64,000 nt of DNA from Candidatus Gastranaerophilales bacterium. GTDB taxonomy: Bacteria; Cyanobacteriota; Vampirovibrionia; Gastranaerophilales; Gastranaerophilaceae. The notes beneath the pieces were generated by a model, which saw nothing but the letters and a program-made list of their open reading frames with translations, was not told where the DNA came from and searched no databases. Where the stretch lies: contig CALUQX010000009.1 in the NCBI GenBank assembly GCA_944323045.1, positions 11,903-75,902 on the forward strand, read 5' to 3'. Made by a program: the position numbers and the translations under genes. Shown here one piece after another: positions 4,406 through 63,918 of this stretch; position 1 is the first letter of the stretch, and each line of letters starts with the position of its first letter.

Positions 4406-4416
4406 GGGGGGGGGGG
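4406..4416 (+). repeat. homopolymeric G11 tract
   Basis: Counted directly: GC-GGGGGGGGGGG-TGCC. The homologous site upstream of paralog B has G10. Confidence 0.95.
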
Positions 4417-4536: not shown

Positions 4537-5036
4537 AAACAAAAATTTACAGTAGACCGTATTTCCCAATCCGCCAGCACCACCACAAGCCAAAAACTTG
4601 TGAATAAATCAATAGTCCTATTAAAACCTACTTAATAAATAGAATTTATGCTAAATTAGCATTATGACAAAGAAAAAACATAAGGATAAAGAATTATGCC
4701 AAAAGATGAAGAATTAAACCAACAATTGAAGAACCACAAAATTCCTCTCCAAGGGGGAGGAAAAGAATTTGTTAGCGAATGTAATGAGCTTACAAATTCA
4801 GGAGGGGGTCAGACCAGTCCGCATTTATACACTGAGTGGTTGCTAAAGAAGTCCAATCACCCAAATTCGACCCAAAACAACTTGTTTCAGGGTCTAGCCA
4901 ACGTGACAGAGGTCGATGAGTTGAATACCCAAACAGTCGTCGCATTAGTGACCCCTCACCAAGAAAGGCTAGCCTCATTACATTCGTCAAGCCTTTCTAT
5001 CCTCTCCCGCAAGGGGCGAGGAGAACGTCATCCCGC

Positions 5037-5092
5037 AACAGGATTGCGGCAATACACAGAGATTGTGACCTTGCGGGATCTCAAAAGAAAAG
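5037..5092 (+). repeat. polar stem-loop element, copy 2 (identical to 4481-4536)
   Basis: About 60 nt identical to the copy 556 bp upstream, extending one base 5' and three bases 3' of the element. Confidence 0.85.
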
Positions 5093-5118
5093 TAGTAACA
5101 AAAAAGGAGAATAAAACA

Positions 5119-6246
5119 ATGAAACTAAACAACAACAAAGCAGTGGCTCAGACCAATTCCAGAAACGGACTTAACGTCCTAACGTCTTATCGTCTTAACG
5201 TCTTTGGAAGACGCTCCGCGTTTACCCTCGCCGAAGTCCTCATCACCCTTGCGATAATCGGCGTAGTGGCGGCGATAACGATACCAAGCCTTGTTAAGAA
5301 CTACAATGAGCATGCATGGTTAACCGCACAGGATGTGTTCACCAAAAGACTTGAAGTCGCAACCCGCCAAATGAACACCGAGGAAAAACTTGCGGGTTAC
5401 AGTTCGACAATGGATTTTGTAAACGAATTAAAGAAGAAAATCAAAATAACCAACGTATGCGATAGCAACAATTTGAGTAAATGCTTTGAAAGCACAATCT
5501 TAACAGCAGACGGTCAGGAAATAGATGCTACTAATTTAAAGACATCCGCCAAACTTGCCAAAGAGGATTGGGGAACGGAAACAGTTGGCGTGCAGTTTGC
5601 AAATGGAATAAATGCATTAATAGCATATAATCCGCAGACAGACCAACAACCGTTCAATAATCAGTTTAGTGCGACTGAGGCAAGCATGGCAATATTGTAT
5701 GACGTATCCGGACACAAAAATCCGAATACCTTAGGTAAAGACGTGAATCAGAACGCGAATGTTAAAAAATTAGGCTGTTATATTAAGCCGGATTTAGTAG
5801 GCGGTATGTGCATAAGCCAGATACTCGTCCCAGGAACAGGCTATAGCCCTATGACGAAAGCAGAATGCGACCAAGCAGTATCCGACGGAGAATTAGGGGT
5901 AAAGGCTTGCCAATATAATGATGATTATTGGGCAGGAGCAGTGAAAGCATGTGGAGGAATAAACAACATGCCAACAGAATCGCAATTAATAGACCTAGCT
6001 AAGTACGTATATAATACAGACAGTATAAACGGCGGAACAAGTACAACACATGCAACCTTAGACACAGAAAAAGCCTCTCAATTCCTCTCAGCATCCCCAT
6101 ATTCTAATTCGTTCTATGTTTGGTCTGGGCAGGAGAGCAGCAGCCTCGGCGCGTACTACCGCGACTTTCGCTATACCTACACGCTCTGGTACGACAGCAG
6201 CGCCCGCGACAGCAGCATCATACTCGCGGTTTGTCTTGACCAGTAA
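5119..6246 (+). CDS. prepilin-type N-terminal methylation-domain protein with lectin-like hypervariable C-terminus (paralog A)
   Basis: AAAAAGGAGA RBS before ATG 5119. AFTLAEVLITLAIIGVVAAITIPSL class-III signal/hydrophobic helix with E at +5. C-terminal YWAGAVKACGG..MPT..QL..LAKYVY...FYVWSG...AVCLDQ resembles the DUF1566/C-type-lectin-like layout. The ORF is open in frame back to 4696 (see findings). Confidence 0.85.
   Translation: MKLNNNKAVAQTNSRNGLNVLTSYRLNVFGRRSAFTLAEVLITLAIIGVVAAITIPSLVKNYNEHAWLTAQDVFTKRLEVATRQMNTEEKLAGYSSTMDFVNELKKKIKITNVCDSNNLSKCFESTILTADGQEIDATNLKTSAKLAKEDWGTETVGVQFANGINALIAYNPQTDQQPFNNQFSATEASMAILYDVSGHKNPNTLGKDVNQNANVKKLGCYIKPDLVGGMCISQILVPGTGYSPMTKAECDQAVSDGELGVKACQYNDDYWAGAVKACGGINNMPTESQLIDLAKYVYNTDSINGGTSTTHATLDTEKASQFLSASPYSNSFYVWSGQESSSLGAYYRDFRYTYTLWYDSSARDSSIILAVCLDQ
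6121..6243 (+). other. candidate DGR variable region (VR-A)
   Basis: GC-rich island in an AT-rich gene. By hand count, 24 of 30 codons in 6136-6225 end in C. Identical flanks in paralog B, with internal differences mostly at codon positions 1-2. Confidence 0.55.
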
Positions 6247-11846: not shown

Positions 11847-12089
11847 TTATCCCTGCATTAAATCATCATAATTTATATTATGTGCGCGGGCGTAATCTAT
11901 AAATTCTTTTTCTTTTTTGGAAACTCGTATCCGAAATTCCAAAACATTACCGGTCTTTGGTTTACGTCCGGCGTTCTCACGCTTTCCGCCCCATTTTAAT
12001 ATTGCTTTGTCTATATTTTCACGAATTTTTTGTTGACGCTCCAGTGGTAATTGATTGATTAAATCATCTGTTGTAATTTTGTTTCTCAT
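11847..12089 (-). CDS. putative antitoxin / small DNA-binding protein
   Basis: 4-nt overlap with the upstream RelE/Gp49-like gene. Basic GGKRENAGRKPK segment. Confidence 0.4.
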   Translation of the reverse strand: MRNKITTDDLINQLPLERQQKIRENIDKAILKWGGKRENAGRKPKTGNVLEFRIRVSKKEKEFIDYARAHNINYDDLMQG

Positions 12090-12430
12090 AATAGTAATTC
12101 CTTATTAGCTTCTAAATATCTGTCTATATTTCGGTGCGCTTGTTCTATATATCTTTTAGGTGCTTTTTGCGTTTTTTTCAATACAATAAATCCTATAATT
12201 ATTATTTTTTTCTTTGCATATTTAAAGTAAGCTCTTACGCCACTTGGTTTTATTTCATATAGCCCATCACCTGGCGAATTTATATTTTTGTATTTTGTGC
12301 CTATTTCTTCAAATACCTTTATTGCCTCCAATATTTTGTCCTGACTTTTTTCATCAAGTGCACTATATTGTTCAAGGGCTTCGTCTGTGTATTCTGCAAT
12401 AAATTGTGCCATAATTTCACCTGAATCCAT
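12086..12430 (-). CDS. RelE/ParE-superfamily toxin (phage Gp49-like)
   Basis: Size and motifs (LYEIKPSGVRAYFKY...IIIIGFIVLKKTQKAP) resemble Gp49/HigB-like killer proteins. Paired with a small downstream gene. Confidence 0.55.
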   Translation of the reverse strand: MDSGEIMAQFIAEYTDEALEQYSALDEKSQDKILEAIKVFEEIGTKYKNINSPGDGLYEIKPSGVRAYFKYAKKKIIIIGFIVLKKTQKAPKRYIEQAHRNIDRYLEANKELLL

Positions 12431-12827: not shown

Positions 12828-13820
12828 TTATTGCAAGTTTGTTGCACATAATATATTGTGCTTTTCTTCAGGAGTGTATCCATACCCACCATGCCAGCTA
12901 AAACATTTACACATGCGTTTACTGGAATTTTCAAAATAACTTGTTTCATTACCCCAATAGCAACTATCTGTAGGAAAAGGAATGCCATTATCCTCTATGT
13001 CATCGTGTAAATCTGACATATAGCTAAATGATAATGTTTGCATATTGGCGGCTTGACATATTTTTTCATAATCATACCAACTACTTTTTCCCATGTAAAC
13101 AAAACATTTATTATCAAATTCCAGGTCACATCCACTGGAAAAACGTGCTCCATTAAAACTTCTAATATCATTAATATTTTCACTATTAGTTTCTCGGTTA
13201 GGTGATTTTGCGCCGTTTACATCCGTAATATATGCTATCATATTTGTGCTATCAGATGTATATGCATACTCTTTGCTTTTGTTTTTACTGATTTTTATTG
13301 ATTTTTTAGTCCATTGTGGTGCTGATGTTGCATATACAGGTGATGACTGTGTATTATAGTTTAAAATTATGGATGTTCCATCTGCAAGTATTAACCCAAC
13401 ATTGTCAGTGGAATATCCATCGCCAAGACTTAAATTTTTACCTGTTTTTGCACGGCTAACATCAAACTCATTACCGTCATTATCAATAATTTTTGATGTA
13501 GACCAGCATGCCGCAATGTTATTTTTATTACATCTTTTTATTATTTTCAAATGTTTTTGTAAATTATCCACAAATTCATCTGTACTGTTATATGTAGTTT
13601 CTAACTCACCGAGAGCACGCATTTTATCAACAGCTTGCGTAATTTTATATGCAACATTAGCTTCTTTATTTGCCCATACAGTTGCAGTTATATTTTTCAT
13701 AATATTAGGTATTGTTATTGCTGCTACTACCCCGATTATCGCCATTGTAATAAGTACCTCTGCAAGTGTAAATGCTATTTCATGATTCTGTTTGTTAATC
13801 TGATTTTTTACAATTTTCAT
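12828..13820 (-). CDS. prepilin-type N-terminal methylation-domain protein (P4)
   Basis: MKIVKNQINKQNHEI-AFTLAEVLITMAIIGVVAAITIPNI. DVNGAKSPN motif shared with the other paralogs. Cys-rich C-terminal domain. Confidence 0.8.
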   Translation of the reverse strand: MKIVKNQINKQNHEIAFTLAEVLITMAIIGVVAAITIPNIMKNITATVWANKEANVAYKITQAVDKMRALGELETTYNSTDEFVDNLQKHLKIIKRCNKNNIAACWSTSKIIDNDGNEFDVSRAKTGKNLSLGDGYSTDNVGLILADGTSIILNYNTQSSPVYATSAPQWTKKSIKISKNKSKEYAYTSDSTNMIAYITDVNGAKSPNRETNSENINDIRSFNGARFSSGCDLEFDNKCFVYMGKSSWYDYEKICQAANMQTLSFSYMSDLHDDIEDNGIPFPTDSCYWGNETSYFENSSKRMCKCFSWHGGYGYTPEEKHNILCATNLQ

Positions 13821-13927
13821 CCTTTAACCTCCAAAATGATGTATAAATTTATTGGCATGACTTATAAATCAATATACATGAATTATAAATCATTTTTCAT
13901 ATTTGTCAAGGAAGGTAAAATGTTCAA

Positions 13928-14161
13928 ATGGAAAGAGAAAAAATAGTAAAGCTTTTTGCAGACAATCTGCGTGCCGAACGAGCCCGCAAGTATTATACGC
14001 AGGAATATTTAGCAGAATGTGCCGGCATTTCAACAGAATATCTCGCAAGAATAGAAGGCGGTAAATTCTCACCGTCGCTGGTTGTCATTGTTAATCTTGC
14101 CCTTGCATTAGGTGTCGCCATTGACAAACTCATTCCGCTTGACGAATTAAATAAAAAATGA
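13928..14161 (+). CDS. XRE-family helix-turn-helix transcriptional regulator
   Basis: YTQEYLAECAGISTEYLARIEGGKFSPSL matches the Cro/C1-type HTH pattern. Divergent from P4 across 107 bp. Confidence 0.8.
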   Translation: MEREKIVKLFADNLRAERARKYYTQEYLAECAGISTEYLARIEGGKFSPSLVVIVNLALALGVAIDKLIPLDELNKK

Positions 14162-14935: not shown

Positions 14936-16036
14936 CTATCCTTGTGCAGCAAAAGTTCCGTGGTAAACGCCGCGCAGCGCCTGCTGTAATTCATTTTTAT
15001 TATCTGAAAATTCTAAAGCAGTTTCCGGTGTTATGTATCCGGCTTTGCAAAGCTGGTACAAAGAAGTGTTCATTGTAATCATTTTGTTGAATGAACCTTT
15101 TTTAACCAGATCATAAATCTCTTCTAATTCATCTTTTACAATAAAATCTTTTACAGTAGAAGTGCACACAAGAATTTCACATGCCGGACGTCTGCCAGTA
15201 CCGTCTTGAGTAGGTACGAGTTTTTGAGAGACAGTACCGCGTAATATTTGTGCTAGCTGTTCTCTTACAAATTGTCTGTCTCCCGGGTCGAACATATTTA
15301 CAATACGGTTAACTGTTTGTACAGCATCATTAGTGTGGATTGTTGCGTATACGAGGTGACCGGTTTCAGCAGCTTTGAGGGCGCTGATAATTGTTTCTTT
15401 ATCTCTTATTTCGCCGATAAATATAACATCAGGATCCTGACGCAATGCGTATTTTACCCCGTCAGGGAAAGACGGAGTATCAAGTAGAATCTGTCTTTGA
15501 GAGACAATACTCATATTGTTGGTAAAGATAAATTCAACCGGATCTTCTATTGTAATAATATGTTTTGCATAGTGATTGTTAATATAGTCAATCAAAGATG
15601 CGATAGTTGTAGATTTTCCGCTGCCTGTCGGACCTGTAATAAGTACAAGACCGTTATTTAGCATCGAAAACTGACTCATAGCAGCAGGAAGATTTAATTC
15701 TTTAATATCTTTGATTTTATAAGGAATAACACGAATAGCAAGCGCTCTGTGGTTCAACTGTCTGCTTGTGTTTACCCTGAAACGTGAACAGCCCGGTATT
15801 TCAAAAGAAAAGTCGAGGTCAAGATATTGTTCATAATTAGATTTTAAATGTTTTGGAACAAGCGTTTCCAAACTTCTATTAAGGTCATCATCGGTCAGTG
15901 TCGGCATTTCAGTAAATTTAAAAATTTCACCGTCTTTTCTCATGCACGGGTATTCTTCTACATACAGGTGTGCGTCCGATGCACCTATCGCAACAATGTT
16001 CCTTAAAAATTCTATTATATCAAAATCTTTCATCAT
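14936..16036 (-). CDS. pilT: type IV pilus twitching-motility ATPase PilT
   Basis: Walker A GPTGSGKST, Asp box, Walker B (DPDVIFIGEIRD), His box and the PilT signature AxxTGHLVxxTxHT. Start set at MMKDF (GGGAGA RBS) rather than the ORF-track start 16069. Confidence 0.9.
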   Translation of the reverse strand: MMKDFDIIEFLRNIVAIGASDAHLYVEEYPCMRKDGEIFKFTEMPTLTDDDLNRSLETLVPKHLKSNYEQYLDLDFSFEIPGCSRFRVNTSRQLNHRALAIRVIPYKIKDIKELNLPAAMSQFSMLNNGLVLITGPTGSGKSTTIASLIDYINNHYAKHIITIEDPVEFIFTNNMSIVSQRQILLDTPSFPDGVKYALRQDPDVIFIGEIRDKETIISALKAAETGHLVYATIHTNDAVQTVNRIVNMFDPGDRQFVREQLAQILRGTVSQKLVPTQDGTGRRPACEILVCTSTVKDFIVKDELEEIYDLVKKGSFNKMITMNTSLYQLCKAGYITPETALEFSDNKNELQQALRGVYHGTFAAQG

Positions 16037-16336
16037 ACTTCTCCCATAATACAGAATTATAACATCCAAATTATGCTTGGCAAAAATGCAAAGTTATGTA
16101 AAGCGGTAGGGTAATAACAAATTTATTTGTAACAAAAGTTTAACAAAAGACATAACACTGGCAATTTTTATCCGCCGAAATACTTTATTAAAATGTAAGG
16201 GAAATTTAAGATTAATAAAAAGGATTTTAATTGGATATTTAGAATAATCAAATAATTCTTCACGATGTAAGAAAAAAGATTATAAGAAAAGTTTATTTTT
16301 ATACTCTCTCTCTTAATATCCTCGTGTTTATTTAAT

Positions 16337-16472: not shown

Positions 16473-16811
16473 ATGCCAAAAGAAATAGAATACTATACAA
16501 CAAAAGATAATAAATGTCCTTACATTGAATGGTTCAACACTTTATCCAGAGATTACCAGTCTAAAGTAATCAAAAGAGTAAACAGACTTGAAGACGGGTT
16601 ATATGGCGATTGCAAACGTCTAACTAACAGCAAGTTAAGTGAATTACGTCTAGCCTTCGGTAAAGGGTATAGAATATATTTCAGAGAACTGGACAATGTA
16701 ATTATACTTATTCTCGCAGGCGGAGATAAATCAGACCAGAAGCGTACAATAAAACAGGCAGATATATACCTTGAAGACTACCTGAACAGGAGAAATAACA
16801 ATGACAATTAA
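16473..16811 (+). CDS. addiction-module killer protein (RelE/HigB-like)
   Basis: CPYIEWFNTL...VIKRVNRLEDGLYGDCKRL...LSELRLAFGKGYRIYF...VIILILAGGDKSDQ matches the putative addiction-module killer family pattern. Confidence 0.7.
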   Translation: MPKEIEYYTTKDNKCPYIEWFNTLSRDYQSKVIKRVNRLEDGLYGDCKRLTNSKLSELRLAFGKGYRIYFRELDNVIILILAGGDKSDQKRTIKQADIYLEDYLNRRNNNDN

Positions 16812-17106
16812 GCATAATGACTTTGTAAATGAATGGTTACAAGATAAAAATAATCAAAATATATACTTACGTGATAGTCTGCTTGAATTTTCTGAAGACG
16901 GGGACTATACAGAGTTCTTTCGTTCACTGGAACAGGTTATAAAGGCACGTACAACTGTTAAGCAGTTTGCAGAGGCAATAGGTATGCAAAGAACAAGTCT
17001 TGTTGATCTTTTGCATGGCAGAACAAAAGCTCCGACTATTGCAACTATAAATAAAATCCTTGACGGTCTTGGATACGAAATAAAAATACAAGAGAAATCT
17101 GCTTAG
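16801..17106 (+). CDS. addiction-module antidote protein (HigA-like HTH)
   Basis: Overlaps the killer gene by 11 nt. FAEAIGMQRTSLVDLLHGRTKAPTIATINKILDGLGYEIKI is HTH-like. Confidence 0.7.
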   Translation: MTIKHNDFVNEWLQDKNNQNIYLRDSLLEFSEDGDYTEFFRSLEQVIKARTTVKQFAEAIGMQRTSLVDLLHGRTKAPTIATINKILDGLGYEIKIQEKSA

Positions 17107-18138: not shown

Positions 18139-18828
18139 ATGAAATATAGCGGCATAATATTTGATTTTAACGGTACATTGTTTTTCGATTCAGAAAAACA
18201 TCTTGAGGCGTGGCGGGAATTTTCAAGACGCCTGCGCGGCACAGCATTCACTGATGATGAAATGCGCAAATACATGTTTGGAAGAACAAATGAAGATATT
18301 ATTGCTTATGCAATACAAAAACAACCGACAAAAGAACAGGTTGAACAGCTTGCTAAGGAAAAAGAGTCCCTTTATCGTGATATGTGCAGAAAAGATCCTG
18401 AAAATTTCAAACTTGCACCTGGTGCTGTTGAATTTCTTGACTGGCTGAAAGAAAATAATATCCCCCGCACTATTGCAACCATGTCAGAAAAAGATAATGT
18501 GGATTTTTACATTGAAGGCTTTAATCTTGCCCGCTGGTTTGATGTTGATAAAATTGTCTATTCTGACGGTACTATGCGCGGAAAACCTGCACCTGATATT
18601 TATGAAATTGCAGCTGCAAAACTTGATTTAAAACCGGAGGAGTGTATTGTTGTTGAAGATGCACTTTCAGGGATTGAGGCTGCAAAAAATGCCGGTATAG
18701 GGAAAATTATTGCAATTGCATCAATGGATGGCAAAGATGTTTATGAAAATATTACCTGCGTAAGTCAAATTATTACTACATTTGATGAAATTGACAGAGA
18801 AATTTTTGAACAAAAAGTTACCTGCTAA
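18139..18828 (+). CDS. HAD-superfamily hydrolase (beta-phosphoglucomutase-like subfamily IA)
   Basis: Motif I (IFDFNGTL), motif II T, motif III K (RGKPAPDIY) and motif IV (VVEDALSGIEAAKNAG). Confidence 0.8.
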   Translation: MKYSGIIFDFNGTLFFDSEKHLEAWREFSRRLRGTAFTDDEMRKYMFGRTNEDIIAYAIQKQPTKEQVEQLAKEKESLYRDMCRKDPENFKLAPGAVEFLDWLKENNIPRTIATMSEKDNVDFYIEGFNLARWFDVDKIVYSDGTMRGKPAPDIYEIAAAKLDLKPEECIVVEDALSGIEAAKNAGIGKIIAIASMDGKDVYENITCVSQIITTFDEIDREIFEQKVTC

Positions 18829-19589
18829 TTGCCGCATTTGTGCTTGCCATTCCAACTTAAATCATTACAGTGCCAGTAATCCATGTTCCCGTTTTCAATA
18901 ACCCAGCCGGCGCATCCCCAGCCAGCAGCAGAATCTGACAGGCAACCGGTTTCAAAAACATAGCCCGCTGCTGTATAATTCCTCGCCCCTACAGGTACTA
19001 AAGTTCCACGCTTAGTGAGATTAAATATAAATAAATCCTTGCCATAAGTATTTGGCTTGGAAGACCCGTTCACATCTACAATATATTCCCCGCAGATATT
19101 AGTTAAATCTCCAGTACCCAAATTTATGCTGCATGCGCCATCAGCAGTCATATTGGCATAAATACCTACTATCATTCCGTCTGCAAGCTGCATGCCTGCT
19201 CTGCCGGTTCCGTCGCCGCCATTAAATACATGAGTATCCAGTTTCTCGCCTCTACGCATATATAATGTATCTGCTGTATGGCATTTGCTATTGCCGTCAT
19301 TACAGAATTTTGCATGCTTAATATACGGGAAAATCGTCGTAAGCAAAACATCAGGGACATCACTTGTTATCCCCCACATATCAGGTGTTCCGTGTTCAAT
19401 AACAGCCATTTGTACTGCTTGATTAATAGTCGAATAGAACTTTTTCAATGCTGTTACTCTTGCTTTTTCCTGATATTTTTGCACGAGAGAAGGTATTGTT
19501 ATAGCAGCAACAATACCGATTATTGCCATTGTGATAAGTACTTCTGCAAGTGTAAATGCAAAATTTTTAGTATGCAGCGATTTTGTCAT
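18825..19589 (-). CDS. prepilin-type N-terminal methylation-domain protein (P5)
   Basis: MTKSLHTKNF-AFTLAEVLITMAIIGIVAAITIPSL. VDVNGSSKPNTYGKDLFIF. Cys/Trp-rich C-terminus (WVIENGNMDYWHCNDLSWNGKHKC), paralogous to P7. Confidence 0.8.
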   Translation of the reverse strand: MTKSLHTKNFAFTLAEVLITMAIIGIVAAITIPSLVQKYQEKARVTALKKFYSTINQAVQMAVIEHGTPDMWGITSDVPDVLLTTIFPYIKHAKFCNDGNSKCHTADTLYMRRGEKLDTHVFNGGDGTGRAGMQLADGMIVGIYANMTADGACSINLGTGDLTNICGEYIVDVNGSSKPNTYGKDLFIFNLTKRGTLVPVGARNYTAAGYVFETGCLSDSAAGWGCAGWVIENGNMDYWHCNDLSWNGKHKCGN

Positions 19590-19700
19590 CTTTAATCCTC
19601 ACATATTAAGATTACTACTTATATTCAAGTAATATTACTTAAATACATGTAGTATAATAAACGATTTACCTATAAATGTCAAGTATTTTATAATGAAAAT

Positions 19701-23270: not shown

Positions 23271-23280
23271 GGGGGGGGGG
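23271..23280 (+). repeat. homopolymeric G10 tract
   Basis: Counted directly. Same flanks as the G11 tract at 4406-4416. Confidence 0.95.
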
Positions 23281-23403: not shown

Positions 23404-23836
23404 CTCATCGGTCAGTCAGTAGACCGTATTTCCCAATCCGCCAGAACCAACACAAGCCGAAAGCTTGTGCATAAGTCAATAGTCCTATTAAAGCCTACTT
23501 AATAAATAGAATTTGTGATAAATTAGTATTATAACAAAGAAAACATAAGGATAAAGAATTATGCTAAATGATGAAGAATCAAATCAACAATTGAAGAACC
23601 ACAAAATTCCTCTCCGTGGGGGAGGAAGAAATTTGTTGCCGAACGGAGAGAGGCTAGAAATTTCAGGAGGGGGTCGGACCAGACCACATATAGTCCCCCC
23701 ACCCGAACCACTAAACTCACGAAAGTTCGTTAAGTGGTTCCGCCCTCCCCTCAGGAGAGGGCACCAAGCCAACCACGAGGAAACAATCAGTAATACACAA
23801 TCAGAAGATAGAAACAACAGAAAGGAGCAACTCCAA

Positions 23837-24976
23837 ATGAAAACCAAAAACAAAATCAACGAATCAACCGCTCAGACCAATTCCAGAAACAACGGTACTC
23901 ACCATACTCACTTCACTCACTTAGTCACGTCCCCAAAAGCCGCGTTTACCCTCGCCGAAGTCCTAATCACCCTCGCAATCATCGGCGTAGTAGCGGCGAT
24001 AACGATACCGAGCTTAGTCAAGAATTACAATGAAAAGGCATGGGAAAGTGGACAAAAAGTTTTTGAAAACAGATTACTTGTAGCTACACGTCAGATGAAC
24101 ACAGAGGAAAAATTGGCAGGTTATTCTTCAACCATGGACTTTGTGAATGAGTTGAAAAAATATATTAAAATAACCCGTGTCTGCGATAATGACAACATTA
24201 CCAAATGCTTTAATAAAGAAGTAATCTGGAGTGCTGATGAAGAGCCGGTAGACATGTCAAAAGTAACAGATGCATCAGCTTTTGGTCTGGATTGGGAGAC
24301 TGATACGGTAGCAGTTCAGTTTGCGAACGGTGTAAATGCAGTAATTGCTTACAATCCGAATGCAACACAAGACCCATATAATAACCAGTTTGCGGCGACC
24401 TCAAAATCCATGGCAATATTGTATGATTTGTCAGGAAACAAGAATCCGAATACAAATGGTAAGGATATAAAAAATATAAATGTAGACCAGTTAGCCGGTG
24501 TAGAAGGCTGTTTGATACCTGAGTTAAAAGATACAATGTGCATAACGAAAATTATATCTCCGGAAGAATACGGATATTTATCATATTCAGAATGTACCGA
24601 GGCTAAGAATAACGGCGAAATAGACGTAGATGCATGTTATAATGGCTCAAGTCCAGATTATTTTGCGGGCGCAGTAAAAGCATGTGGAGGTAAGAAAGCA
24701 AACTTACCAAGCCAAGACCAGCTAACGCAGCTAGCAAAATATGTATATGGAACAGACAGTATAAACTCCAGCGGTTATACATATGACCTAGCTTTAGACA
24801 CAACCAAAGCCTCCCAATTCCGCTCAGCAAGAGGTACTGATTACTTCTATGTTTGGTCTGGGCAGGAGTATAGCCGCGACCGCGCGTACTTCCGCTTCTT
24901 CTACTCTACCGGCACGAACGGGAACGACTGCAACCGCCACTACAGCTACGCTCTTGCGGTTTGTCTAGACCAGTAA
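23837..24976 (+). CDS. prepilin-type N-terminal methylation-domain protein with lectin-like hypervariable C-terminus (paralog B)
   Basis: AAAGGAG RBS before ATG 23837. AFTLAEVLITLAIIGVVAAITIPSL. Central 79 aa identical to paralog C. C-terminal FYVWSGQE...AVCLDQ. The ORF is open in frame back to 23561. Confidence 0.85.
   Translation: MKTKNKINESTAQTNSRNNGTHHTHFTHLVTSPKAAFTLAEVLITLAIIGVVAAITIPSLVKNYNEKAWESGQKVFENRLLVATRQMNTEEKLAGYSSTMDFVNELKKYIKITRVCDNDNITKCFNKEVIWSADEEPVDMSKVTDASAFGLDWETDTVAVQFANGVNAVIAYNPNATQDPYNNQFAATSKSMAILYDLSGNKNPNTNGKDIKNINVDQLAGVEGCLIPELKDTMCITKIISPEEYGYLSYSECTEAKNNGEIDVDACYNGSSPDYFAGAVKACGGKKANLPSQDQLTQLAKYVYGTDSINSSGYTYDLALDTTKASQFRSARGTDYFYVWSGQEYSRDRAYFRFFYSTGTNGNDCNRHYSYALAVCLDQ
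24853..24973 (+). other. candidate DGR variable region (VR-B)
   Basis: By hand count, 22 of 29 codons in 24869-24955 end in C. Flanks identical to VR-A. Confidence 0.55.
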
Positions 24977-32493: not shown

Positions 32494-33288
32494 TTAGATT
32501 TTATACGGATAATTGTCTTTATACTCCCAATTGTCCATCCGTAGTAAATCTGAACAGTATTTGCCGTTTTGGGCGCATAAATCGTATATATGCTCATGGT
32601 AATTTTCGTAGCGAGATGGTTGGTACCCATAAGTCCCAAAGTATTGTTTGTTTGTTTCAAAATAGGTTTTTCTGGAGCTTACCAGTGGCGAAAAAAGGAA
32701 GCGGTATCTGTCATAACCCTCTTTATCCGGTCCTTCGTCTCCGTTAACATCATAAAAGAAATCTATACAATCCCCGTTGTTTACAAAAAATGTGGAGCCG
32801 TCATTTAGATAGACTTTAGTTAATTTGACAATTGTTCCATTATTTATTTCGATTGGTTGATTCTCTTCTATTTTTAGATATTTCATGTATGGCAGTATGT
32901 ATGTATTTACAAATTCAAATCCGTCTTTTGCATTGGTTAATCTGGCTTGTTCAATTTCATCCTCATCTTCCAGTTCATTTATGTTTATATACTCTTTTTT
33001 ATTCCAGTATTCTACGGCGCCGTTATGCACAGTTGACATTTCAATCGCCTGTTGCATTGTAGAGTAGAATTTTTGCAATTTTGTTGAATATTCTTTCTTT
33101 TTGTAACCTTGTATTAATGACGGAACAGTAATCGCTGCCACCACGCCGATTATTGCGAGGGTGATGAGAACTTCAGCGAGCGTAAACGCGTTGGCTCGTT
33201 TGAGGAAGTGAGTGCTGTGAGTAAAGTGAGTACCGTGGTTTCTTTGATTAGGCTTTGTACTTGTTTCTTCTTTTGTGTTGGTTTTCAT
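32494..33288 (-). CDS. prepilin-type N-terminal methylation-domain protein (P6)
   Basis: ...GTHFTHSTHFLKRAN-AFTLAEVLITLAIIGVVAAITVPSL. YDVNGDEGPDKEGYDRYRFLF motif. The leader is encoded by GTGAGT-type 9-mers (33205-33235). Confidence 0.8.
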   Translation of the reverse strand: MKTNTKEETSTKPNQRNHGTHFTHSTHFLKRANAFTLAEVLITLAIIGVVAAITVPSLIQGYKKKEYSTKLQKFYSTMQQAIEMSTVHNGAVEYWNKKEYININELEDEDEIEQARLTNAKDGFEFVNTYILPYMKYLKIEENQPIEINNGTIVKLTKVYLNDGSTFFVNNGDCIDFFYDVNGDEGPDKEGYDRYRFLFSPLVSSRKTYFETNKQYFGTYGYQPSRYENYHEHIYDLCAQNGKYCSDLLRMDNWEYKDNYPYKI

Positions 33289-33389
33289 TTCTTTTATCTC
33301 CTTTCTTGCTGTATAACGGCAAAAATATATGATATTTTTGTATCTTTGCTACTATTATATGCGCTTAACTCCAAATTGTCAATTGTTTT

Positions 33390-33761
33390 TTGGGGCTAAA
33401 GTTAGTTAACATGTTTGCAAATATGGATAAAAATATTAATATGTCTAATCTAAAGAAATTACTAGGGAAAAGAATTAAAGAATTACGGATATCAAAACAC
33501 TACACACAGGAATATCTTGCGGAATTAACTGATTTAGGGGCAACGAGTATAAGTAAGATAGAAACAGGACTTTATCATCCATCGGATGAAAATCTCGAAA
33601 AAATTGCGAAAGCACTTGATGTTGAACCTTATAAACTATATATGTTTAATCATTTGAAATCTGCCGGAGAAATAAAAGAAGAGCTTTTGAAACTTATAAG
33701 TAAAGCGAGCGACAACGATATTAAATTAATTTATCGTATTGTGAATGGAATAGTTGATTGA
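33390..33761 (+). CDS. XRE-family helix-turn-helix transcriptional regulator
   Basis: YTQEYLAELTDLGATSISKIETG is a Cro/C1 HTH. The likely true start is M at 33423 or 33441. Divergent from P6. Confidence 0.75.
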   Translation: MGLKLVNMFANMDKNINMSNLKKLLGKRIKELRISKHYTQEYLAELTDLGATSISKIETGLYHPSDENLEKIAKALDVEPYKLYMFNHLKSAGEIKEELLKLISKASDNDIKLIYRIVNGIVD

Positions 33762-49516: not shown

Positions 49517-49709
49517 TTGGAGTTGTTCCTTTCCTGTTTTTCTAGCTTCTGTTTTGGTATTCATAAATATTCCTTATATTCTTAACTTATATTTACATTT
49601 TACCACATGTTTAAGATAAATACAACATGTTTGTTACAAATAATTTACCGGCGTGTTTATTAGCCCTGTATCAAGATGTAGGCTAAAATTTACCTATAGG
49701 GATAAAATA

Positions 49710-55239: not shown

Positions 55240-55902
55240 ATGTCTGAATACTTGAGCAAAGAAGAGATAAAACAATGGAGAAGCTCATTGGAAAAGATTA
55301 CATTAGAAGAATTCGCTGCCAGACTGGGGAAAAAAATAGAAGAAGCTAAACATACAAATGACCTTGTAGATATAGTTCTTAAAGGTAAACCTGTTGTCTC
55401 TAATGACGATAGCTGGATGCAAACCCGCACAGAAAGATTAAGCACAATAGCTGAACGTGCTATGGTTAGAGAACGTGAAATTTCTCCAACTCCTTTCTCT
55501 GTAGGCAAACTAAAATTGGATGACGGCGTAAAAGTAGAAAAAGCAGAGAAAACATCTGCTCAAAAAATCAAAATAGAAAAAGAGAAAAAAGTAAAAACAA
55601 CTAAAAAAACAGCTAAACCTGCTGCTAAACGCGAAAAGAAAACAACTGTAAAAGCAGTAGCTGCAACTTCATTGAGAGATGAAGTAAGAATAGTTTTCAA
55701 AAAAGCATTGACAGACAGAGAACAAAAAGTATTTGATTACTTCTGTGAAAACTCTAATAAAATTGTTTATGCTAAAGATTTAGCAGCACTTCTTGAACTG
55801 CCTAGAGATTATGTTTACAAGTACATAAAAAATCTCAGAGCAAAAATTGATGGCGACAACCTTCAAAATGCTGATAAGGGCGGATTTATACTGAATGTTT
55901 AA
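55240..55902 (+). CDS. hypothetical protein with Lys-rich linker and C-terminal winged-helix-like segment
   Basis: AAGGAG RBS. KKVKTTKKTAKPAAKREKK linker. C-terminal LTDREQKVFDYF...DLAALLELPRDYVYKYIKNLR is HTH-like. Confidence 0.45.
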   Translation: MSEYLSKEEIKQWRSSLEKITLEEFAARLGKKIEEAKHTNDLVDIVLKGKPVVSNDDSWMQTRTERLSTIAERAMVREREISPTPFSVGKLKLDDGVKVEKAEKTSAQKIKIEKEKKVKTTKKTAKPAAKREKKTTVKAVAATSLRDEVRIVFKKALTDREQKVFDYFCENSNKIVYAKDLAALLELPRDYVYKYIKNLRAKIDGDNLQNADKGGFILNV

Positions 55903-55910
55903 ATAAATTT

Positions 55911-55937
55911 AACGCCGGTCAATTGACCGGCGTTTTT
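55911..55937. terminator. bidirectional terminator
   Basis: AACGCCGGTCAATTGACCGGCGTT followed by TTT, between convergent genes. Confidence 0.75.
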
Positions 55938-55954
55938 ACAATATTTTTTGATAT

Positions 55955-56782
55955 TTAATCACATTTTGTTTTACTGCCCCAATCTAAGTCATTGCATCTT
56001 AGGTAGTCCATATTCCCGTTAATTATAACCCAGGCTGTACACGCATAACCTGCATATATATCATCGTGTGTCATATTGCAATTTTCGTCAAATATATATT
56101 GTTCACTTAATGTTGAATCGTGCGTTCCTGTTGGATATATACCGTATTTAGTAAACAAAAATCTGAATGAATCTACCCCTGTTCTGTTAGGTCCTTTTTC
56201 GCCATTCATATCTATAACGAAGTTACCACAGACATTTTCCAAATATCTGCCGGAGCCAAATTTTAGATTACAGTTTCCTTCAAACCAGCTTGAAACTATT
56301 GATGTGCCATCTGCAAGTGTGATATGGCGTGCATATTCGGAACTAAGCAATTGATCCCCTCGTAAATTATATATAGAATATGTTTGACCACAGTTCTGTG
56401 ATGCAAATGAACAAAATTTATCAACCTTTAAATAAGGCAGAATTCGCTGCCAGACTAAGTCATACCGGGCGTGTGCCGCATCAACTTCATCCTGATTAGA
56501 GTTATCTTCGTTGGGCAGCACAGATGTTGGCAAATCCCACGTATCCAATGTACCGTGTTCAAGCATTGCAAGATTTGCGGCATTAGTTATTACAGAATAA
56601 AATTTCTTAACTTTGGTTATCATGACTTTTTCCTGATATTTTTGAACAAGTGTTGGAATTGTCATTGCGGCAACTACTCCTATTATTGCGAGTGTTATTA
56701 ATACCTCGGCAAGAGTAAATGCTGTATTCCAGTTCGCTGCGTAATCTTTTCCAGACAATTTAATTTGCGTAATGTTTTTCAT
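55955..56782 (-). CDS. prepilin-type N-terminal methylation-domain protein (P7)
   Basis: ...AANWNT-AFTLAEVLITLAIIGVVAAMTIPTL. IDMNGEKGPNRTGVDSFRFLF. The C-terminus (WVIINGNMDYLRCNDLDWGSKTKC) is paralogous to P5. Confidence 0.8.
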   Translation of the reverse strand: MKNITQIKLSGKDYAANWNTAFTLAEVLITLAIIGVVAAMTIPTLVQKYQEKVMITKVKKFYSVITNAANLAMLEHGTLDTWDLPTSVLPNEDNSNQDEVDAAHARYDLVWQRILPYLKVDKFCSFASQNCGQTYSIYNLRGDQLLSSEYARHITLADGTSIVSSWFEGNCNLKFGSGRYLENVCGNFVIDMNGEKGPNRTGVDSFRFLFTKYGIYPTGTHDSTLSEQYIFDENCNMTHDDIYAGYACTAWVIINGNMDYLRCNDLDWGSKTKCD

Positions 56783-56905
56783 TAATACCCTCCTGTTATA
56801 TTTTATTGAATATATATTATACTTGTATACATATAAATTGTATTCAATTTGCTATAACATGTCAAGATGTTTGTTATTTATGCACTAAAAAGCTAAAATT
56901 AAAAA

Positions 56906-57139
56906 ATGGATTATAAATTCGAAAACATAAGTATAATTGACTTTGTTAAAACTCTATGCATATTAAAGGGGTCAAATCTTCGCAAAATTCTACAAAAACT
57001 AGTCGAAGAAAAACATTACAGTAATGCATATGCAAATTTTTATAATAAACTAAAAAATAATACAATAAGATTTAGTGAAATCGCTGATATTGCAGAGTCT
57101 CTCGGGTATGAAATTGTTTTTAGAAACAAAAACAATTAA
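56906..57139 (+). CDS. small HTH-like regulator (antidote-like, no partner toxin)
   Basis: ...LKNNTIRFSEIADIAESLGYEIVF shares its C-terminal pattern with 19701 and 49710. Divergent from P7 across 123 bp. Confidence 0.5.
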   Translation: MDYKFENISIIDFVKTLCILKGSNLRKILQKLVEEKHYSNAYANFYNKLKNNTIRFSEIADIAESLGYEIVFRNKNN

Positions 57140-57146
57140 TATTTTG

Positions 57147-58568
57147 TTATTTTCTCATCAGAACATTCATACCGGCTTTGAAGTAGTTACGAAATTCAGT
57201 GAGTGAACGAATGCTTAGTAACATTCTCCAGATGTATTTTGGACGCAGGTAAAAACGTCTTATTGCCTGTTTATGTAATTCAAAAACTCTTTCTTTAGGC
57301 AGGCAATGAGTATCTACAGCCGGATAGTAATAGGCATTTTCAAAAGATGTTTCATTATCAAACAAGCCGTTCTCTCTTGCATAATTATAAAATCTTGTGC
57401 CCGGAAGAGGGGTTGCGGTGTAAAAACTTACAAAGTCGCTGTCAAGTTCACATGCAAAATCTATTGTATCTTCAATAGTTTCCTCGTCATCCCATGGCAG
57501 ACCAATAACAAAATAGTTATAAATTTTTATATGTGCCTGTTTAAAAATTTTGACAGTTTTTCTTACATCATCAAGTGTAATTTTCTTGCCTATTTTGTCT
57601 AAAATATATTGCGAGCCGCTTTCAACACCGATACTTACGAGACTGCATCCAGCTTCATACATCGCATCAGCCATTTCCTGATCCGCAGTATCTGCACGGG
57701 TATTTGCAGACCATGTTATCTCCAGTCCGCTGTCTATAATTTTACGACACAAATCCATAACCCATTCTTTATCCAGATTGAAAATATCAGACCAGAAAAT
57801 AAAATTACGAATACCATATTTTTCAACGCATTCTTTAATTTCTTCCATAATATTATCAGTACTGCGTTTTCTGACTCTTGCCCCTGAAACAGGCGTTGCC
57901 AGACAAAAGAAACAATGATAAGGACAGCCGCGTGAAACTTTTATAACAGCTTGCACCTCATTATTATCAGGTCTTCTGTATTTTTTATTGTTTATTAAAT
58001 GGCGCGCAGGAAATGGTAAGTCATCCAATTTTTCTATCAAGCGGCGTTTTCCCGTAAACTTAATCAGCAAATCATCACGGTAATAAATACCGGATATCCA
58101 GCGTTTAGATTTTCCTGATACAATTTCTCTCAGAGTTTCTTCAGCTTCACCGATAATCACTATATCAAGAGCTTTATGATTAGCAAGGACTTCATTTGCA
58201 AGTGTTAAAAATGCTGCCCCTTTAGCTATTGTTACAATTTCCGGACAAATAAGCTTTGCTCTTTCAAATACGGACAGGTCGTTTTCAAGGGTTGGCGTTG
58301 CAACATTTGCGACCAGATAATCCGGTTGAAAATTCCTTAAATCTTCATCCAGATCACCTTCCTGACTGTAATCTCTAATCATAGCTTCCAGTCCTGCTTT
58401 TTCAGCCACAGCCGCAAGATACATTAAATCAGTCGGCGGTAATGGAGGTATTACTATTAACTCCTTTGTCGGCTGCTGGCATCTATCCTCTCTGTTTAAA
58501 ACAGGTGAAGGCGGGTATATTAATAAAATTCTTTTCTTAACTTCCGTATCTTTTTCTTTTTCACTCAA
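57147..58568 (-). CDS. B12-binding-domain radical SAM protein
   Basis: N-terminal cobalamin-binding-like domain. CxxxCxxC (SRGCPYHCFFC) radical SAM cluster motif. Confidence 0.85.
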   Translation of the reverse strand: MSEKEKDTEVKKRILLIYPPSPVLNREDRCQQPTKELIVIPPLPPTDLMYLAAVAEKAGLEAMIRDYSQEGDLDEDLRNFQPDYLVANVATPTLENDLSVFERAKLICPEIVTIAKGAAFLTLANEVLANHKALDIVIIGEAEETLREIVSGKSKRWISGIYYRDDLLIKFTGKRRLIEKLDDLPFPARHLINNKKYRRPDNNEVQAVIKVSRGCPYHCFFCLATPVSGARVRKRSTDNIMEEIKECVEKYGIRNFIFWSDIFNLDKEWVMDLCRKIIDSGLEITWSANTRADTADQEMADAMYEAGCSLVSIGVESGSQYILDKIGKKITLDDVRKTVKIFKQAHIKIYNYFVIGLPWDDEETIEDTIDFACELDSDFVSFYTATPLPGTRFYNYARENGLFDNETSFENAYYYPAVDTHCLPKERVFELHKQAIRRFYLRPKYIWRMLLSIRSLTEFRNYFKAGMNVLMRK

Positions 58569-62886: not shown

Positions 62887-63918
62887 ATGAGTGTTAACAC
62901 TTTTTTTATCCTGATAGGCTTTGTATTTATTATTGGCTTATGTATAGGAAGTTTTTTAAATGTTGTTATTTTACGGGCGCTGTCAAATGAATCTATTATC
63001 TTTCCGCCGTCAAAATGTCCTGTATGCGGAAACAGTCTGAAATGGTGGCATAACATTCCTGTATTGTCTTATATTCTACTGAAGGGCAAATGCGGGTTCT
63101 GTAAATGTAAAATCAGTATTCAATATCCGATTGTAGAACTTTTAACAGGAATTTTATTCACATTTGTATTCATTAAATTTTTTATAGGCTCCGCAATATT
63201 AACCGGAATAACTGCAGGTACATATATTAATACAATTTATGCATGGATAGTTATATCCCTGCTAATTGTTATGGCAGTAACTGATATAAAAGAAAAAGTT
63301 GTGTTTGATGCGCACACATATTCTCTGATTGGCGCCGGACTTGTTTATGCAATGCTTATCACGGGTTCTGCAATATATTTTAGTTTAACAAGCACAGGCA
63401 AACTGCCGCTGAATACATCTTTCCTTATAAACAATCCTCTGACAGATGCATTATTAGGTCTTGCTGCAGGAGTTATTATAATGGAACTTCTTGCGCGTAG
63501 CGGATATCTATTCGCTGGCACAAGGGCTTTTGGTGAAGGTGATACCTTCATTGCTGCAGGTATCGGGGCTGTCTTTGGCTGGAAAAAGCTTATCGCGGCT
63601 CTGGTCTTAAGTATAATAATCCAGCTTATCATCACATTACCATTATTTTTGAAAAAATTATTTGACAACAAGGAGTATTTTACATTTGGAACGCTTTCAG
63701 GTTTCTTCATTTATGCGGCGGCATTTTTGATTCTGCAAAGCAAAGGACTGCTTTCAAATAGTATTGTATATTTAGTTGCGGCTGTTTTACTTGCAATCAT
63801 CGGAATTACTGCCTGCATTAACATTATTAAAGGTATTAAAAGCAATCCGGATAACATGATTTATCTTCCATTTGGACCGGCTATGGCTATTGCGGCTTTA
63901 ATTATGATTTGCATATAA
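62887..63918 (+). CDS. pilD: prepilin peptidase / N-methyltransferase (A24 family)
   Basis: N-terminal CPVCG...CGFC zinc motif. Polytopic membrane protein with two conserved Asp motifs (VTDIKEK; GEGDTFIAAGIGAVFGW). Confidence 0.85.
   Translation: MSVNTFFILIGFVFIIGLCIGSFLNVVILRALSNESIIFPPSKCPVCGNSLKWWHNIPVLSYILLKGKCGFCKCKISIQYPIVELLTGILFTFVFIKFFIGSAILTGITAGTYINTIYAWIVISLLIVMAVTDIKEKVVFDAHTYSLIGAGLVYAMLITGSAIYFSLTSTGKLPLNTSFLINNPLTDALLGLAAGVIIMELLARSGYLFAGTRAFGEGDTFIAAGIGAVFGWKKLIAALVLSIIIQLIITLPLFLKKLFDNKEYFTFGTLSGFFIYAAAFLILQSKGLLSNSIVYLVAAVLLAIIGITACINIIKGIKSNPDNMIYLPFGPAMAIAALIMICI

Follow-up and report, generated by a model that had tools for sequence, protein, structure and literature searches.

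Five divergent pairs of prepilin-type and small DNA-binding protein genes

The 64-kb stretch of DNA analyzed here (hereafter, the window) is part of contig C9 (CALUQX010000009.1) of a 1.98 Mb draft genome of an uncultured Candidatus Gastranaerophilales bacterium, a relative of the cyanobacteria (GCA_944323045.1; labeled G000; GC 36%), and all coordinates are window positions unless another contig is named. The window encompasses five pairs of divergently transcribed genes, in each of which a prepilin-type gene on the minus strand faces a gene for a small, predicted helix-turn-helix (HTH) DNA-binding protein on the plus strand. The original prediction had counted five such pairs in this DNA, and all five are present where it put them. 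The same DNA is present in chicken-gut metagenomes, and relatives of the pilin-like proteins are found almost exclusively in Candidatus Gastranaerophilales (Melainabacteria) metagenome-assembled genomes (MAGs) from the gut.

The partner proteins fall into a short class (<95 aa, that is, about 67-94 aa) and a long class (about 100-113 aa). Orthogonally, the claim that all five are HTH proteins stands clearly for two (13928 and 33390), which match the HTH_3 domain of Pfam; the remaining three (19701, 49653 and 56906) belong to a divergent HTH class, denoted class 2, and are not ordinary XRE-family proteins. The genes that constitute the five pairs are as follows.

12828-13820, minus strand: pair 1 prepilin-type gene, 330 aa; Pfam N_methyl, 22.9 bits (cut-off 21.2); AFTLAE signal with Glu+5
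13928-14161, plus strand: pair 1 partner, XRE-family HTH protein, 77 aa; Pfam HTH_3, E = 6.1e-10, 39.4 bits (cut-off 23)
18825-19589, minus strand: pair 2 prepilin-type gene, 254 aa
19701-19922, plus strand: pair 2 partner, class-2 HTH protein, 73 aa; TATAAT 6 nt before the ATG
32494-33288, minus strand: pair 3 prepilin-type gene, 264 aa, DUF6613
33390-33761, plus strand: pair 3 partner, long-class XRE protein; Pfam HTH_3, E = 5.6e-17, 62 bits (cut-off 23); 123 aa as called, the true start being probably an internal Met that yields about 106 aa
48404-49564, minus strand: pair 4 prepilin-type gene (paralog C), 386 aa
49653-49985, plus strand: pair 4 partner, class-2 HTH protein, with the HTH in the C-terminal ~75 aa; start at 49653 or 49710
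55955-56782, minus strand: pair 5 prepilin-type gene, 275 aa
56906-57139, plus strand: pair 5 partner, class-2 HTH protein, 77 aa

All five pilin-like proteins contain the AFTLAEVLIT motif followed by a hydrophobic helix, and four of the five reach the N_methyl cut-off, the fifth scoring 20.7. The spacers between the divergent genes are short (88-123 bp) and AT-rich (GC 0.20-0.28 vs 0.36 for the genome). As had been noted, none of the pairs belongs to a pilus-assembly operon, which is located on another contig. Pair 1 is surrounded by housekeeping genes, with recO among the neighbors, and lies two genes away from a gene for a PilT-like ATPase.

Pairing is a genome-wide feature

Open reading frames (ORFs) were called mechanically over the whole genome, and prepilin-type ORFs were picked by pattern, which yielded 91 such ORFs; profile searches add a few more that the pattern missed. 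A divergent gene for a small DNA-binding protein is located within about 300 bp upstream of 73 of these 91 ORFs (80%), so that the genome-wide count comes out in favor of pairing as the rule for prepilin genes. Viewed from the side of the regulators, an XRE profile built from the partner proteins matched 97 ORFs in the genome, and 62 of these face a prepilin gene compared with about 2 expected by chance (binomial test with prepilins making up 4% of the ORFs, P = 1.6e-78). Among the 73 partners, 56 match Pfam HTH_3 at E ≤ 0.01 and 55 match HTH_26; the others are class-2 proteins, along with two that appear AbrB-like by eye and are unmatched by Pfam. The XRE genes that do not face prepilins are mostly antitoxins adjacent to Gp49/HigB-like toxins, or else face other genes.

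The association extends beyond this genome. Across 32 Gastranaerophilales genomes, in which the number of prepilin motifs ranges from 10 to 172 and the number of XRE-profile matches from 7 to 149, the two counts are correlated (Spearman 0.65, P = 6e-5).

In three loci on other contigs (C10:13547-15048, C11:37291-38859 and C17:50103-51506), long-class XRE genes face genes for 310-342-aa proteins of another repeated family (e.g., MKKIKWFSFRDIDSHYVIKIF...). The design with a private regulator may extend to other gene families.

Anatomy of the divergent control regions

The control region of pair 1 accommodates two predicted promoters and two putative operators within 107 bp. Its features are listed below together with the pilin-direction promoters of pairs 2, 3 and 5.

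13821-13927: divergent control region of pair 1, 107 bp, GC 0.24, with both promoters and both putative operator copies
13858-13871: putative operator O2 (TGACTTATAAATCA), imperfect dyad centered at about +10.5 of the presumed pilin start
13879-13892: putative operator O1 (TGAATTATAAATCA), overlapping the pilin -10 and centered at about -10.5 of the presumed pilin start and about -42.5 of the presumed regulator start
13882-13887, minus strand: pilin promoter -10, TATAAT; together with the -35 at 16-bp spacing, it scores 11.5 of 12
13904-13909, minus strand: pilin promoter -35, TTGACA, inside the spacer of the regulator promoter
13916-13921, plus strand: regulator promoter -10, TAAAAT, 6 nt before the ATG, without a Shine-Dalgarno sequence
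19677-19682 (-35) and 19654-19659 (-10), minus strand: pair 2 promoter, TTGACA-17-TATTAT
33377-33382 (-35) and 33354-33359 (-10), minus strand: pair 3 promoter, a perfect TTGACA-17-TATAAT
56860-56865 (-35) and 56837-56842 (-10), minus strand: pair 5 promoter, TTGACA-17-TACAAT

From these elements, transcription of the pair 1 pilin gene is predicted to start near 13875, whereas that of the regulator would start at its ATG, 13928. The regulator -10 so close to the start codon, combined with the lack of a Shine-Dalgarno sequence, implies a leaderless regulator mRNA at this locus.

The two putative operators form a direct repeat, with 13 of the 14 bases matching at a distance of 21 bp, and each is an imperfect dyad of the form TGA-N-TTATAA-N-TCA; the dyads end 36 and 57 bp before the regulator ATG. 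In the entire 1.98 Mb genome, the motif TGATTTATAANTCA has exactly two occurrences, and pair 1 accounts for both. The 41-nt segment that spans O2 and O1 (13857-13897) recurs, with a single mismatch, in a second context in all four of the chicken-gut metagenomes, where both flanks are unrelated to those of pair 1. The sequencing depth of this second context relative to the present genome varies between samples, and the second copy probably belongs to a module of a co-resident relative in which only the operators are kept. We read the recurrence of exactly this segment as an apparent footprint of selection on the putative operators.

The same organization is discernible across the genome. Compared with the TTGACA-N17-TATAAT consensus, a pilin-direction promoter with a score of at least 10 of 12 is present in 50 of the 73 spacers, and one with a score of at least 11 in 31, compared with 6.8% and 0.3% of the shuffled spacers, respectively; in the direction of the regulator, only 4 of the 73 spacers reach 10. 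Relative to the regulator start codon, the pilin -35 has a fixed position that sets the two classes apart: its first base is 17-22 nt from the ATG in the short class, most clearly for regulators of about 68-80 aa, and about 55-72 nt away in the long class. The two classes also differ in the presence of a Shine-Dalgarno sequence, which precedes 3 of the 49 short regulators vs 15 of the 24 long ones, 56% of all genes and 79% of the pilins. Conversely, a TAnnnT hexamer that ends 5-8 nt before the ATG is found in 29 of the 49 short regulators (at exactly 6 nt in 21 of these) vs 15% of all genes. This pattern is probably the signature of a leaderless mRNA that is transcribed from a promoter interleaved with the pilin promoter. 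Among all genes of at least 150 aa, a TAnnnT that ends precisely 6 nt ahead of the start codon is found in 137 of 1448, a clear peak over the neighboring distances, and many mRNAs of this organism may be leaderless. A look-up of RNA sequencing runs, made with the module and with a gene identified by eye as a putative one for ribosomal protein S1, yielded no match.

The paired repeat of pair 1 also has counterparts elsewhere. The best direct 14-mer repeat is spaced by 20-22 bp, that is, two helical turns, in 18 of 68 spacers compared with a mean of 4.35 and a maximum of 11 in 100 shuffled sets, and the repeat copies are located mostly at the pilin -10 and some 15-25 bp downstream, at about +15 to +25. 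Among 13 locus-specific motifs, we detected only 2 stray matches in the spacers of other modules. With the pair 1 motif confined to its own locus and so few stray matches over the 13 loci, the putative operators are therefore private.

The regulators

The pair 1 regulator consists of the HTH domain alone, and its nearest sequence neighbors in the Protein Data Bank (PDB) are a Neisseria regulator, HigA, C.AhdI and C.BclI. For the long-class partner of pair 3, these are C.AhdI (6e-7), C.BclI and full-length SinR. The regulators were compared with three established groups, the phage CI proteins, the controller (C) proteins of type II restriction-modification systems and the HigA/Xre antitoxins, and belong to none of them. 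The pair 1 protein has neither the S24/oligomerization domain nor the prophage context typical of phage CI proteins; its gene is flanked by the prepilin gene and recO, with no restriction-modification (R-M) genes such as accompany C proteins; and the paired regulators face a prepilin gene and have no adjacent co-directional toxin gene as HigA/Xre antitoxins would.

Toxin-antitoxin pairs of the Gp49/HigB-like type do occur in the vicinity, at 11847-12430 and 16473-17106, where they flank the region that includes recO, pilT and module 1. In one metagenomic strain (X4), the segment 11995-12410, which covers most of the toxin gene of the first of these pairs, is replaced by 399 unrelated letters.

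Class 2, with 14 members in the genome, can be assigned to the HTH proteins by remote evidence only. No Pfam HTH domain was matched by the class-2 partners, the DUF6471 score (17.3 bits) falling below the cut-off of 26.8, and the class-2 profile produced only chance matches when compared with PDB sequences. In a profile-profile comparison (hhalign), class 2 aligned collinearly with a profile built from the XRE proteins only (probability 87%, E = 3.9e-6; E = 0.23 for the reversed control). The AlphaFold2 (AF2) model of a class-2 protein is a four-helix domain (pLDDT 92), and its top Foldseek matches are all lambda-repressor-like HTH domains (HigA2, HipB, ComR, POU-specific), with TM scores of 0.55-0.65 at non-significant E values (>0.1).

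Poly-G leaders as an alternative layout

The prepilin genes that lack a partner often have a different feature upstream. A run of 10-12 G residues on the sense strand, 180-380 nt upstream of the gene, is present in 9 of the 18 unpaired pilin genes and absent from all 73 paired genes (Fisher P = 6e-8). Such tracts are rare, with only 21 G/C runs of at least 8 in the genome, and the only two G-runs of that length in the window are those of the following two genes.

G11 run at 4406-4416 and ORF at 4696-6246, plus strand: paralog A, without an HTH partner
G10 run at 23271-23280 and ORF at 23561-24976, plus strand: paralog B, without an HTH partner

Partner and G-leader layouts are mutually exclusive. 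The proposal, originally based on paralogs A and B, that a single family employs two alternative control architectures hence holds for the genome as a whole.

Cargo proteins and the pilus-like machinery

The AF2 model of the pair 1 pilin (pLDDT 81) comprises a 50-residue N-terminal helix (H19-69), a pilin-like sheet and a C-terminal domain. The latter is C-type-lectin-like: within the PDB, Foldseek matched it most closely to C-type lectin domains (E = 1.5e-4; on the target, TM about 0.6) as well as to the C-terminal domain of Legionella Lcl. Several homologs carry the Pfam domain PF07603.

Two genes for pilus-like machinery are located within the window.

14936-16069, minus strand: PilT-like T2SSE ATPase; Pfam T2SSE, E = 9.5e-45
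62887-63918, plus strand: prepilin peptidase PilD (peptidase A24); A24_N_bact, E = 4.9e-34; Peptidase_A24, E = 2e-10

PilD is the enzyme expected to process all these pilin-like proteins. Contig C13 carries the one T2SSF gene (PilC) and the one secretin gene of the genome, and the 671-aa gene between them is taken to be PilB from its position and size. The prepilin-type proteins of the five pairs have the hallmarks of type IV pilins or pseudopilins, with N_methyl scores at or near the cut-off in all five, the Glu+5 motif followed by a helix, and PilD and an assembly machine in the same genome.

The region that precedes the prepilin cleavage motif shows some peculiarities. The pair 3 pilin has a 33-residue His/Thr-rich leader (...NHGTHFTHSTHF...) that is missing from the otherwise conserved module of the sister species G004 (contig C49), and the length of the pre-cleavage leader therefore varies between species. 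In many large pilin ORFs of other MAGs (loci L019, L024, L042 and L088), an in-frame decoy AFTLAEG... precedes the real AFTLAEVLIT by about 20-30 codons; the decoy lies within a long, repeat-derived leader.

Regulators and pilins evolve independently

Regulators and pilin bodies show strikingly different patterns of divergence. A paralog with a normalized score above 0.6 exists for only 2 of the 73 regulators, with a median of 0.40 for the nearest neighbor, vs 36 of the 73 pilin bodies, where the scores reach 0.99. Among the 95 most similar pairs of pilin bodies, the similarity of the cognate regulators is 0.11, which does not exceed the background of 0.15. Co-evolution of each HTH protein with its partner pilin, which had been envisaged at the outset, is rejected by a Mantel-type comparison (Spearman -0.09, permutation P = 0.998). 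The columns of the HTH core that vary most include those for the initial residues of the recognition helix.

Comparison with sister species of the same genus covered modules 1, 2, 3 and 5. In G004, the control part of module 1 is retained beside recO: the 78-aa regulator with its -10, together with O2 and the pilin -35. At this orthologous locus (L094, G004:C3 962-1961), the gene opposite the regulator encodes a DUF6613-type pilin of 211 aa that is unrelated to the pair 1 pilin, and the far flank is different too. The gene downstream of this G004 locus is groES, which in G000 is found on another contig beside a different XRE gene. The changed flank suggests that rearrangement breakpoints fall at the modules. 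No module 1 is found at recO in G001, G002 or G005; for G003, too, the matching DNA is limited to recO. Module 2 is whole in two species, eroded in G003 and represented by a clean empty site in G002 (1203 nt in G000 vs 65 nt). Module 3 is conserved as a unit in G004, with 83% identity between the regulators and 70% between the pilins. The 2.3-kb stretch that includes module 5 along with both flanks (55400-57700) is 96% identical to G004 vs about 80% elsewhere, which hints at a recent exchange between the species.

Close homologs of the pair 1 pilin in other MAGs face a long XRE gene, a class-2 HTH gene or no regulator at all. Pilin bodies seem to change loci without taking their flanks along. 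Within the species, we saw no pilin swapping at pair 1: the four chicken-gut metagenomes all contain this module, diverging by no more than about 1%. In a yak-abomasum MAG (L013, 1642-2199), the place of the HTH gene ahead of the closest homolog of the pair 1 pilin is taken by a co-directional 185-aa ORF. By eye only, this ORF resembles a fragment of a tyrosine recombinase, and a similar-looking small ORF is found beside an XRE gene on contig C24 of the present genome.

A proposed private repressor for each pilin-like gene

Taken together, these observations make it reasonably probable that every paired pilin-like gene has a repressor of its own, the small HTH protein encoded opposite to it, so that each module would be a self-contained switch. 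We infer regulation, DNA binding, repression, autoregulation and the leaderless start from sequence patterns. The idea of a dedicated local regulator, part of the original prediction, gains support from the near-consensus promoters, the locus-specific and nearly unique sites, and the regulators that are all different from each other. Under the proposed mechanism, the strong sigma-70-type promoter of the pilin gene would fire constitutively unless it is blocked. The HTH protein, probably in the form of dimers, would bind two locus-specific 14-bp sites with a separation of two helical turns. Occupancy of these sites, the first of which covers the pilin -10 while the second lies just past the pilin start, would repress the pilin gene. 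In modules of the short class, the regulator would be translated from a leaderless mRNA produced from a promoter with a weak -35 that is interleaved with the pilin promoter. With the promoters interleaved in this manner, RNA polymerase would therefore be unable to occupy both at once, and because the two promoters overlap, the regulator probably regulates itself too. The promoter-proximal operator would be positioned at about -42 from the regulator start; in the lambda PRM and the C-protein systems, an operator at -42 activates the regulator's own promoter. Because the operators and regulators differ at every locus, some 70 pilin-like genes would be gated separately, and their products, with variable C-terminal binding modules, would be handled as cargo by a single PilB/PilC/PilQ/PilT/PilD machine. 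Viewed as a whole, the system looks like a bank of on/off switches that would operate independently of each other and allow the cell to vary a surface that binds sugars.

Several observations weigh against this interpretation. The best direct or inverted 14-mer match per spacer (12.1) is barely above the chance level (11.5 for shuffled spacers), and the 20-22 bp spacing is the only clearly non-random repeat signal, seen in about one quarter of the loci. In G004, only 9 of the 14 bases of O1 are conserved. The start codons of the partners are uncertain at several loci, which shifts the distances to the promoter elements. The short-class partners, at about 70 aa, have no sensor domain, and we identified no inducer or anti-repressor; in particular, Peptidase_M78 (ImmA/IrrE type) is absent from the genome. 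Across the 32 genomes, the ratio of XRE matches to pilins varies from 0.11 to 2.2, with some pilin-rich genomes being XRE-poor, and the prevalence of the module therefore differs by lineage. Finally, among 12 loci from other MAGs that were read by hand, only 4 have a divergent regulator, in a sample that is biased to the large lectin-type subfamily.

Two further possibilities were dismissed. A shared anti-repressor protease was rejected, given the lack of Peptidase_M78 (ImmA/IrrE type) in the genome, and so was the reading of the paired genes as silent, pilS-like cassettes, because these genes are full-length and possess their own consensus promoter, Shine-Dalgarno sequence and signal peptide.

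Other explanations of the same gene arrangement have to be considered. The regulator could activate its own promoter from -42 while repressing the pilin gene, with the pilin promoter occluding that of the regulator when the latter is scarce. Such a bistable, heritable switch would let each pilin flip stochastically and independently, amounting to phase variation without any change in the DNA. The interleaved promoters, which are not occupiable together, the regulator promoter with a good -10 and a poor -35, and the location of O1 at -42.5 of the presumed leaderless start, reminiscent of OR2 at lambda PRM, all fit this scenario. So does the second architecture of the same family, poly-G being a classic phase-variation device, which suggests that the family is under on/off control. 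Nevertheless, we regard bistability as rather unlikely: the evidence is purely geometric, activation by XRE proteins this small is known for C proteins and applies here only by analogy, and the long-class modules differ in spacing and carry a Shine-Dalgarno sequence.

Far less probable is a mobile or duplicating two-gene cassette in which the HTH and pilin genes would travel together by common descent rather than for the purpose of regulation. Modules do behave as indel units between sister species, as exemplified by module 2, with its 1203 vs 65 nt and eroded form in G003, and by module 1, which is missing beside recO in G001, G002 and G005, with the G003 match limited to recO. However, the partners show no co-phylogeny (Spearman -0.09, permutation P = 0.998), near-identical pilin bodies are found beside unrelated regulators, and the same regulator faces a different pilin in G004. 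Neither integrases nor transposases nor terminal repeats were noticed in the ORF lists of the modules examined, although no search aimed at them was made, and common descent leaves the conserved promoter and operator anatomy unexplained. Hardly credible at all is the notion that the HTH proteins are abundant orphan antitoxin-like or prophage-remnant regulators, adjacent to the pilin genes by coincidence or through shared AT-rich insertion sites. Some of the XRE genes are indeed true antitoxins located by Gp49/HigB-like toxins (e.g., 16473-17106), and HigA is among the best PDB sequence matches. But the statistics on enrichment and spacing already contradict this explanation, that is, the 62 pairings vs about 2 expected, the strictly divergent orientation and the fixed promoter spacing; furthermore, no toxin gene is found beside the paired regulators, and the copy numbers covary across the 32 genomes.

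Returning to the private repressors, one can conceive of a bolder version, which we put forward as a speculation with a low chance of being correct. The modules would constitute a parallel set of mutually orthogonal mini switches of a lambda-like PRM/PR type without Cro, where promoter occlusion serves as the second negative arm, and each would flip one lectin-tipped pilin epigenetically and independently. The regulator, operator and promoter would form a fixed socket, with pilin bodies recombining in and out, such that the repertoire would vary on two time-scales. If this version is true, about 70 pairs of repressor and operator that do not cross-react would come together in each genome as a library made by nature.

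If the main reading, private repression, is correct, the order as a whole would supply thousands of repressors of about 70 aa with 14-bp operators, apparently selected for non-cross-reactivity, which would be useful for synthetic circuits. Likewise, some 7-8% of the genes of this small genome would encode pilin-like proteins that are lectin-tipped and gated one by one. Few gut bacteria would be expected to vary their adhesion in this manner, which would operate alongside the poly-G route in the same family. The modules offer a testable model of how one type IV pilus-like machine might be fed from about 100 substrates without expressing all of them, and of how regulators and cargo evolve independently, with diverged private regulators residing beside near-identical pilin bodies.

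Comparison with known systems

The supposition that this is not a described system is supported by the literature searches: full-text searches that combined pilin, XRE and divergent transcription, or Melainabacteria/Gastranaerophilales and pilin, gave no description of it, and no report of a one-regulator-per-pilin layout was found in the literature searched. The papers on Gastranaerophilales that were consulted mention only that type IV pilus genes are present or contain nothing on pili.

Modular type IV pilins that bear adhesive modules are known from Streptococcus sanguinis (PilB and PilC), and expanded prepilin families from Elusimicrobium and from Planctomycetes (DUF1559). With these, the present proteins share the class III signal, the pilin helix, the variable C-terminal module and the large size of the family per machine; the difference is that the genes for those pilins are located in or near pilus operons or are not known to have a dedicated regulator. 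Similarly to the phase-variable and antigenically variable pili of Neisseria, with their poly-G pilC and silent pilS, a minority of the family carries a G10-12 tract upstream, and pilin bodies appear to move between loci apart from their flanks. Unlike in Neisseria, the paired genes are complete, and their control would be exerted by a putative protein repressor rather than by a change in the DNA.

Among regulators, SinR of Bacillus subtilis is an XRE repressor of surface fiber genes, a role that the partners described here would share. Full-length SinR can be aligned with the long-class partners along 86 residues, and the alignment reaches into the C-terminal helical domain of SinR. SinR, however, is a single master regulator with the antagonist SinI, whereas here there are dozens of private regulators, with no antagonist found.

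By sequence, the closest relatives are C.AhdI and C.BclI, followed by SinR and HigA. The C proteins (C.AhdI, C.BclI, C.PvuII, C.Esp1396I) are XRE-type HTH proteins of 70-80 aa that provide the best or nearly the best solved sequence relatives of the partners, and they resemble the modules in having paired dyads (putative here) near their own gene and in holding off a potentially costly neighboring gene, as the partners are proposed to do. C proteins are expressed from leaderless transcripts, and their specificities differ between systems. In contrast to the C proteins, the target here would be a divergent pilin-like gene, not a co-transcribed endonuclease, with no adjacent R-M genes; there are about 70 copies per genome compared with one per mobile system; and the candidate operators are located on the -10 and start of the target.

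By layout, the closest system is the lambda immunity region, where the cI promoter PRM faces PR. In lambda, the cI mRNA is leaderless, and the operator at about -42 of the regulator start also blocks the opposing strong promoter. The back-to-back promoters are common to both, as are the shared operators, which are putative here. Lambda differs in that the modules have no Cro-like regulator, no C-terminal cleavable or oligomerization domain (in the short class), no prophage and no ImmA/IrrE. By analogy, then, the module would work like the C proteins and lambda CI without belonging to either group. The parts are familiar, and it is the scale and the layout that are new.

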